From a phage: a stretch of 529 bases of DNA. The stretch lies in sequence record AF039882.1; one strand, 5' to 3'. Shown piece by piece: positions 1 to 529 of the stretch. The translations under genes and the position numbers were made by a program. Every line of letters starts with the position of its first letter. Positions within the stretch are counted from its first letter, which is position 1. The notes beneath the pieces are model-generated. The model searched no databases, was not told the DNA's origin, and saw nothing but the letters and a program-made list of their open reading frames with translations.

Positions 1-41
1 TCCCGTTNACTTTTGATGGGGATACTAAAACANAGGGGGAT

Positions 42-200
42 TTAACTGGAGGCGTGAAAAACGGGGAGCTGATCCCCGTCGGTTATCANGAGAAGTGGGC
101 AATTGTTACGCTTTGCCATTTCCCGCCAATCATCTTGCTGTCTAGACTTGCGATGCCGTANTAAAAACCGTTTATACCAGTGATTAAACCATCGTTTCAT
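42..200 (-). CDS. hypothetical small basic, Trp/Arg-rich protein (52 aa), apparently translationally coupled to the upstream ORF
   Basis: ATG at 200..198 overlaps the upstream TGA (199..197) as ATGA. GAGGGGG (plus-strand 205-211, read on minus) sits 4 nt upstream of the ATG. Hand translation: MKRWFNHWYKRFLXRHRKSRQQDDWREMAKRNNCPLLXITDGDQLPVFHASS, stop TAA at 44..42. About 11 Lys/Arg against 5 Asp/Glu. Absent from the ORF track (presumably below a length cutoff). Two codons contain N. Could instead be a frameshifted continuation of the upstream ORF if the read has an indel near 197-200. Confidence 0.35.
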   Translation of the reverse strand: MKRWFNHWYKRFLXRHRKSRQQDDWREMAKRNNCPLLXITDGDQLPVFHASS

Positions 201-382
201 AAATCCCCCTCGGGTAATCGATGCGTGATCTTCTCCTCTTCCCCGTAGGAATCGACCAAATGCTGATAATANCCATCGGNATCATAAATAACGCTATCAT
301 ACTCGCCCCGCTCGACCGCTCCCCGATTCTCCGGCGTATCGGGCANATAGAAAANGTCTACNATTGTGGTAGTTTTGGTCAC
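197..382 (-). CDS. hypothetical small acidic, Tyr-rich protein (61 aa counted from GTG at 382..380; true start uncertain)
   Basis: ORF from the supplied track. Enterobacterial-style codons (GAT, GAG, CGG, GGG). 14 Asp/Glu against 5 Lys/Arg, and 6 Tyr. No convincing Shine-Dalgarno upstream of the GTG; the frame stays open up to an in-frame TGA at 433..431, so the start may lie elsewhere or be obscured by read errors. Five codons contain N. The stop TGA (199..197) overlaps the ATG of the next minus-strand ORF. Confidence 0.4.
   Translation of the reverse strand: MTKTTTXVDXFYXPDTPENRGAVERGEYDSVIYDXDXYYQHLVDSYGEEEKITHRLPEGDL
205..211 (-). promoter_or_regulatory. Shine-Dalgarno-like GAGGGGG for the ATG at 200..198
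   Basis: Minus-strand sequence cccGAGGGGGatttATG read directly from the window; purine-rich motif with short but acceptable spacing to the start codon. Confidence 0.45.
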
Positions 383-400
383 AATAATTTTATTGCTCAG

Positions 401-419
401 TAATAACGCCCCGTTATTA
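401..419. repeat. perfect palindrome TAATAACG-ccc-CGTTATTA (8-bp arms, 3-nt spacer); candidate operator or hairpin
   Basis: Read directly: 401-408 taataacg is the exact reverse complement of 412-419 cgttatta. Lies in the AT-rich stretch 383-420, 19-37 nt upstream (in minus-strand terms) of the GTG at 382. A second weaker inverted repeat, caataa/ttattg (382-387 / 390-395), is adjacent. Confidence 0.45.
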
Positions 420-454
420 GTTGANGANTCTCAAAGATAGCGTTCGCAAGTGTN

Positions 455-481
455 GCCCTTAGATATCCCANCCGNGGCTTC
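455..481. other. probable polylinker or primer-derived junction sequence between insert and vector
   Basis: Clustered 6-bp restriction sites immediately before the vector match: EcoRV GATATC 462-467 and SacII-like CCGNGG 473-478, followed by EcoRI 482-487 and NcoI 487-492. Three N calls in 27 nt. The exact insert boundary cannot be fixed from sequence alone. Confidence 0.3.
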
Positions 482-529
482 GAATTCCATGGTCCGGTTT
501 CCTGTGGTGAAATTGTCGATCCAGCGTCA
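482..529 (-). other. cloning-vector sequence: lac operator / SD / NcoI / EcoRI segment of a trc/tac-promoter expression vector (pTrc99A-like), at the degraded end of the read
   Basis: Reverse complement of 482-529 is tgacgctggatcgacaatttcaccacaggaaaccggaccatggaattc. From memory the pTrc99A lacO-RBS-MCS is TGTGAGCGGATAACAATTTCACACAGGAAACAGACCATGGAATTC. The right-hand ~30 nt match except for one inserted C and a CGG-for-AG change; the left-hand part is noisier, as expected at a read end. The adjacent NcoI-EcoRI arrangement (CCATGGAATTC) is characteristic of this vector family. Confidence 0.65.

Follow-up and report, generated by a model that had tools for sequence, protein, structure and literature searches.

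The sequence record AF039882.1 holds 529 nucleotides of DNA from a phage, and this whole stretch, at its full length, is referred to here as the window. The locus raises the question of how much of the window is phage genome and where the remainder comes from. A first-pass annotation, made from the letters of the sequence, had described the window as a raw clone read that ends in expression-vector sequence. We compared both parts of the window with deposited vectors, phage and bacterial genomes and natural plasmids.

The 3' end of the window aligns with a trc expression vector

The tail of the window was aligned by dynamic programming, and the reference vector sequence had been confirmed in deposited records beforehand. 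A string of 83 nt, running from the trc promoter through lacO, the SD and NcoI to EcoRI, was present at 100% in plasmid pCAGO (KY563785.1). The polylinker together with the rrnB part was present at 100% in NC_009716.1, and the polylinker was found again in a chromosomal tac cassette (NZ_CP026361.1). The support of deposited records for the vector is limited to the 83-nt promoter-to-EcoRI string and the MCS downstream of it. As reverse complement, window 482-529 reads TGACGCTGGATCGACAATTTCACCACAGGAAACCGGACCATGGAATTC (the reverse complement of the whole window starts TGACGCTGGATCGACAATTTCACCACAGGAAACCGGACCATGGAATTCGAAGCC...), and the trc cassette deposited in pCAGO reads TGAGCGGATAACAATTTCACACAGGAAACAGACCATGGAATTC. 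The two are identical at 41 of 43 vector bases, with two substitutions and five single-base insertions in the read. Local alignment of the tail to the trc segment gave a score of 56, as compared with a mean of 12.5 (sd 2.2, maximum 25) in 3000 shuffles, none of which reached 56. The proposal that the 3' end is the lacO-SD-NcoI-EcoRI region of a trc vector in reverse complement is thus borne out.

The individual elements could be followed through the read errors. The operator stretch, 529..511 in reverse complement, matches TGAGCGGATAACAATT with three extra bases and one substitution. From the SD to the start codon (AGGA, ACAGACC and the ATG within NcoI) the read has CACAGGAAACCGGACCATGG where the vector has CACAGGAAACAGACCATGG, a difference of one insertion and one substitution; CACAGGAAACAGACCATGG turned up in 15 papers, in keeping with its being a vector sequence in common use. 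The overlapping NcoI/EcoRI string CCATGGAATTC is free of errors at 492..482. The read terminates within lacO, and the -35/-10 promoter hexamers with their 17-bp spacer, lacIq, the rrnB T1T2 terminators and bla of pTrc99A-type vectors fall beyond the 529-base window. A direct BLAST search of plasmids with the raw 3' end returned only a chance match of 28 nt, the stretch being too short and too indel-ridden for a word-based search.

When different cassette layouts were scored against the tail, the trc layout reached 56 and trc with MCS 60, compared with 44 for pUC18 and 37 for a tac cassette. Judged by these alignments, the NcoI-EcoRI trc layout, as in pTrc99A, is a better fit than either tac or pUC18. 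With read errors allowed for, the window shares with pTrc99A-type vectors the order and spacing of lacO1, CACAGGAAACAG, ACCATGG and AATTC. Tac cassettes (pKK223-3 / pMMB-type, and the one in E. coli NZ_CP026361.1) likewise have lacO, the SD and the EcoRI-SacI-KpnI-SmaI-BamHI polylinker; however, they are without the ACCATGG (NcoI/ATG) element seen in the window. The vector is probably of the type of pTrc99A (Amann, Ochs and Abel 1988), from which the trc NcoI-EcoRI layout is known. Unlike these vectors, the window does not read cleanly as GAGCTCGGTACCC after EcoRI, and therefore a derivative with an altered polylinker is possible. The CCATGGAATTC overlap would set pTrc99A apart from pKK233-2, pSE380, pTrcHis and pTrc99B/C.

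The insert is bacteriophage T5 DNA

By blastn, window 4-470 is 96.1% identical (E = 0) to T5 8887-9349 in NC_005859.1, AY543070.1 and AY692264.1, and a fourth T5 record with its own numbering, AY587007.1, matches at 95.9%. Base-by-base alignment placed window 472..4, on the minus strand, at T5 8885-9349. Identity is about 96% when Ns are counted and 99% over called bases. The 19 differences between read and T5 comprise 10 Ns over a reference base, two inserted Ns, three inserted called bases (464, 400 and a third on the edge of the junction) and four isolated substitutions (446, 426, 350 and 10). They are read errors only, none being supported as a real variant, and the order of the end of T5.016, T5.017, a small ORF, a terminator and the start of the iss region is that of the T5 genome. 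The insert lies in the left terminal repeat of T5, the first-step-transfer (FST) DNA, which is duplicated at the right end.

Nowhere in a finished genome were the 529 nt found as one contiguous stretch. T5 records match window 4-472 only, and window 473-529 is unlike the stretch that lies upstream of 8885 in T5. Nothing similar to the window was present in 5,426 complete E. coli genomes, nor was there a match among natural plasmids (PLSDB), and an origin of the insert from E. coli or from a natural plasmid was rejected on these grounds. The first-pass annotation had set the limit of artificial sequence at 455-529. This stands for 482-529, which are firmly vector, whereas 455-472 are the genuine 3' end of T5.016.

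About 200 T5-like phages match the window at 80-90%. Among the records OR848837.1, OR844769.1 and OR850763.1, one of 3.4 kb labelled 'Listeria phage LM 4-14-1' carries T5-like DNA. It matches the window at 86.5% and 499 bits, the same values as for fragments labelled E. coli phage and Salmonella phage in this accession series, which looks like mislabelling or cross-contamination of the records.

Errors accumulate toward the 3' end of the read

The window contains 14 N calls, as had been counted before, at positions 8, 33, 89, 161, 272, 280, 346, 355, 362, 425, 428, 454, 471 and 475. Error density was 4% in window 1-100, 1% in 101-200, 2% in 201-300, 5% in 301-400, 9.7% in 401-472 and 14.6% in 482-529. 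Such a profile is that of one single-pass read whose quality falls off toward the 3' end, and the rise from 1-2% in mid-read to about 15% agrees with the earlier description of a raw clone read of falling quality. Some of the errors imitate or remove features: an extra A at window 464 makes an apparent EcoRV site (GATATC, 462-467) where T5 has GGGATTC, and a substitution at window 446 deletes a TGA in another frame.

Genes and elements in the insert

The features of the window are collected in Table 1. T5.016 and T5.017 are both encoded by the minus strand, in keeping with the claim that this strand of the insert is sense with respect to Ptrc.

Table 1. Features of the 529-nt window, with strand and the basis of each assignment.
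Feature	Window position	Strand	Basis and remarks
TCC, not T5	1..3	+	exactly beyond the CG^CG cut at T5 9349|9350
Part of 'injection stop signal (iss)' region (NC_005859.1 9140-10149)	4..214	-	annotation; promoter-proximal 210 bases only
Rho-independent terminator 'palindrome C'	57..78	-	T5 9275-9296; T5 annotation
Conserved 37-aa ORF (MKRWFNHWYKRFLVRHRKSRQQDDWREMAKRNNCPLL)	86..200	-	T5 9154-9267
T5.017, complete, 67 aa, function unknown, phrog_6973 (E 1.6e-40)	197..401	-	T5 8954-9157
T5.016 3' end, last 18 codons (DGILRATLENAIFEIVN) and TAA stop 419..417	417..472	-	T5 8885-8938; NC_005859.1 alignment and annotation
Vector/insert junction, reverse complement GAAGCCNCG	473..481	-	enumerated models of polylinker bases kept and T5 start
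trc-promoter expression plasmid sequence	482..529	-	alignment to deposited KY563785.1 (L005 441-483)
EcoRI GAATTC	487..482	-	within vector tail
NcoI CCATGG	492..487	-	encloses vector ATG 490..488
SD AGGA	503..500	-	within vector tail
lac operator O1, 3' part	about 529..511	-	within vector tail

The 61-aa ORF with a GTG start that had been reported from the raw read is the annotated T5.017, whose ATG (401..399) is split in the read by the spurious C at window 400, turning ATG into ACTG. The 37-aa ORF downstream is basic, and its ATG overlaps the stop of T5.017 (ATGA). It is present at full length in 63 phage records with 78-100% amino acid identity; it is unannotated in the RefSeq record of T5 (NC_005859.1) and an annotated CDS in some relatives, e.g. 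phage phB7. In the raw read, the 37-aa ORF loses its TGA to a surplus N at window 89, which gives rise to a false ORF of 52 aa. A Pfam search of the raw ORFs gave no matches.

The 37-aa ORF shares sequence with the first part of the annotated injection-stop region. The functional iss repeats are located further downstream, in a non-coding region starting at 9194 (Davison, bioRxiv 10.1101/866236), of which the clone contains only the edge. The terminator has an 8-bp G+C-rich stem (ACGGGGAUCAGCUCCCCGU) and then a T-run; as RNA it folds at -12.9 kcal/mol (z = -2.5). A scan of the window for consensus promoters and terminators returned nothing and so missed the annotated terminator too, probably as its stem can extend into the T-run. 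With Rfam, the sole hit in the window was the frameshift site RF01074 at 98-124 (-); its score of 18.6 bits (E 0.75) is below the gathering cut-off of 40, and it was taken as a chance match.

The insert ends at two adjacent CGCG sites

T5 has adjacent CGCG sites at 8882 and 9348 with none between, and CG^CG cuts at these sites yield 8884-9349, a fragment of 466 bp. The T5 segment of the read ends on the right exactly at 9349 (CGCG at 9348-9351) and starts on the left at 8885±2. Among 80 palindromic 4- and 6-mers, CGCG alone occurs at both insert ends. At a density of 7 CGCG sites per 3463 bp, the joint chance for both ends is ~2e-5, or ~1e-3 after correction for 80 palindromes. The position of both ends on adjacent sites points to a blunt CG^CG restriction fragment and probably a library-type clone; this agrees with the first-pass annotation, which had favored a library clone over a designed fusion. 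The enzyme would presumably belong to the class FnuDII/ThaI/BstUI/AccII.

The TCC at window 1-3 is presumably untrimmed vector or linker, and these three bases are all there is of the right-hand junction, a weak point of the assignment. As a side observation, the same three bases would fit the tail of GGATCC(CC) in a BamHI/SmaI polylinker.

At the other junction, window 471-481 reads GAAGCCNCGGN in reverse complement where polylinker GAGCTCGGTACCC was expected. None of the polylinker models accounts cleanly for the 9-11 bases that separate EcoRI from firm T5 sequence. The best-scoring models, which are tied, keep 4-9 polylinker bases (GAGC...GAGCTCGGT) and continue with T5 from 8882-8887. Several models lie within 2-4 score units of the best, and the local error rate of about 15% bars a decision among them. 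A plain SmaI junction (GAGCTCGGTACCC followed by CGATGGG) needs about six bases to be missing from the read. We regard 473-481 as probably residual polylinker in which bases of the SacI region were misread. Junctions made by an EcoRI linker, filled-in EcoRI, EcoRV or SrfI were dropped by eye, each leaving several bases unexplained, and the EcoRV site exists only through the read insertion described above.

The vector ATG forms no translational fusion

Counted on the raw read, 108 bases separate the vector ATG (490..488) from the GTG at 382; the two codons share a frame, and a TGA falls between them at 433..431. The first-pass annotation had argued from this TGA that the clone was no designed fusion. 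The frame relation holds for the raw read only. The argument fails because the raw read is indel-ridden between the vector ATG and the ORF, with at least three spurious insertions (464, 428 and 400) in addition to those in the junction. The conclusion survives nonetheless: in the reference-corrected sequence, the frame of the vector ATG stops after 9-13 codons in each of the three junction models translated (3/3). As read from the corrected sequence, there is no translational fusion, and all that the clone contains of T5.016 is a C-terminal stub.

Origin of the clone

Taken as a whole, the window is very probably a single-pass read of one trc-vector plasmid with a 466-bp CG^CG fragment of T5. 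The plasmid would be a pTrc99A-type trc vector with the arrangement lacO-SD-NcoI(ATG)-EcoRI-polylinker. The insert, T5 8884-9349, was most likely released by an enzyme that cuts CG^CG bluntly and then joined to the polylinker, with the T5 genes in the direction of Ptrc. A Sanger-type read primed beyond the far side of the insert would cross it on the antisense strand and die in the lac operator, with base-calling errors climbing steeply across the last 130 bases. In such a plasmid the vector ATG would open just a short junk peptide, and any translation of T5.017 and of the 37-aa ORF would begin at their own start sites on a Ptrc transcript. The vector and T5 matches, the coordinates, the coincidence with CGCG and the error gradient are direct results; which vector, enzyme and cloning site were used, and what the clone was made for, we infer. 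A literature search found no paper describing a T5 library or T5 fragments in pTrc99A or another trc vector.

The vector could in principle be a pUC-type lacZ-alpha plasmid in pUC18 orientation instead of trc. The lac operator and the SD are common to pUC and trc, and lac, tac, trc and pUC sequences all share the first 33 aligned bases, from lacO to GGAAAC, so that this part of the tail suits either. The bases that follow do not. Where pUC18 has CAGCTATGACCATGATTACGAATTC, the read must have lost 4 + 5 bases, whereas the other errors here are all insertions; the lacZ-alpha element CAGCTATGACCATGATTACG, which in pUC18 stands between the SD and the polylinker, does not fit the read. Given also the score of 44 for pUC18 as against 56-60 for the trc layout, we hold a pUC-type vector to be very unlikely. 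Continuity across the junction, which is unreadable, is unprovable from the sequence alone, and this leaves room for an in-silico or in-vitro chimera, in which vector contamination of other origin became attached to a T5 read when the data were assembled or trimmed. The error rate, however, climbs smoothly over the junction as in one trace, and the vector part is polylinker-proximal, in the expected orientation and adjoins the end of a restriction fragment; a chimera is scarcely credible.

A trc plasmid could also have received a PCR product, made with an EcoRI or SacI primer site for expression of T5.017 from its native start, in which case the coincidence with CGCG would be due to chance. 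Such a design is in line with the neat position of T5.017 inside the fragment together with its own upstream region, and the junction models 'GAGCTC + G + T5 8885' and 'GA + T5 8878' lie within 0-3 units of the best. Yet the insert is bounded on either side by a CG^CG cut, with base precision on the right, a coincidence with the corrected chance given above, and a designed construct would hardly start 69 bases upstream within T5.016 and hardly run 190 bases beyond T5.017. We therefore consider a PCR product very unlikely and retain the single-pass read of a CG^CG fragment cloned in a trc vector.

Implications

The window, with its man-made 3' end, is a cloning artefact assembled from parts already known, namely the trc cassette and a T5 stretch present in four genome records. 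Bases 473-529 belong to neither a phage nor a bacterial genome and are unfit for analysis as natural sequence. An operator, ribosome site or start codon found within 473-529 is that of the plasmid, and the earlier advice to treat any promoter or operator near the junction with caution was right. The same care applies to ORFs, since single-base read errors distort two of the three in the window: lists made from the raw read mislead, giving 61 aa for the 67-aa T5.017 and 52 aa for the ORF of 37 aa. The value of the finding is one of data hygiene only; the phage part duplicates the four T5 records and holds no new biology. A different meaning would attach to the extra C at window 400 if it were a real mutation, selected in a clone from a functional screen of FST DNA under Ptrc, with T5.017 being harmful to E. 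coli. We rate this as very improbable; if true, it would provide the first phenotype for T5.017, a conserved pre-early protein of unknown function.
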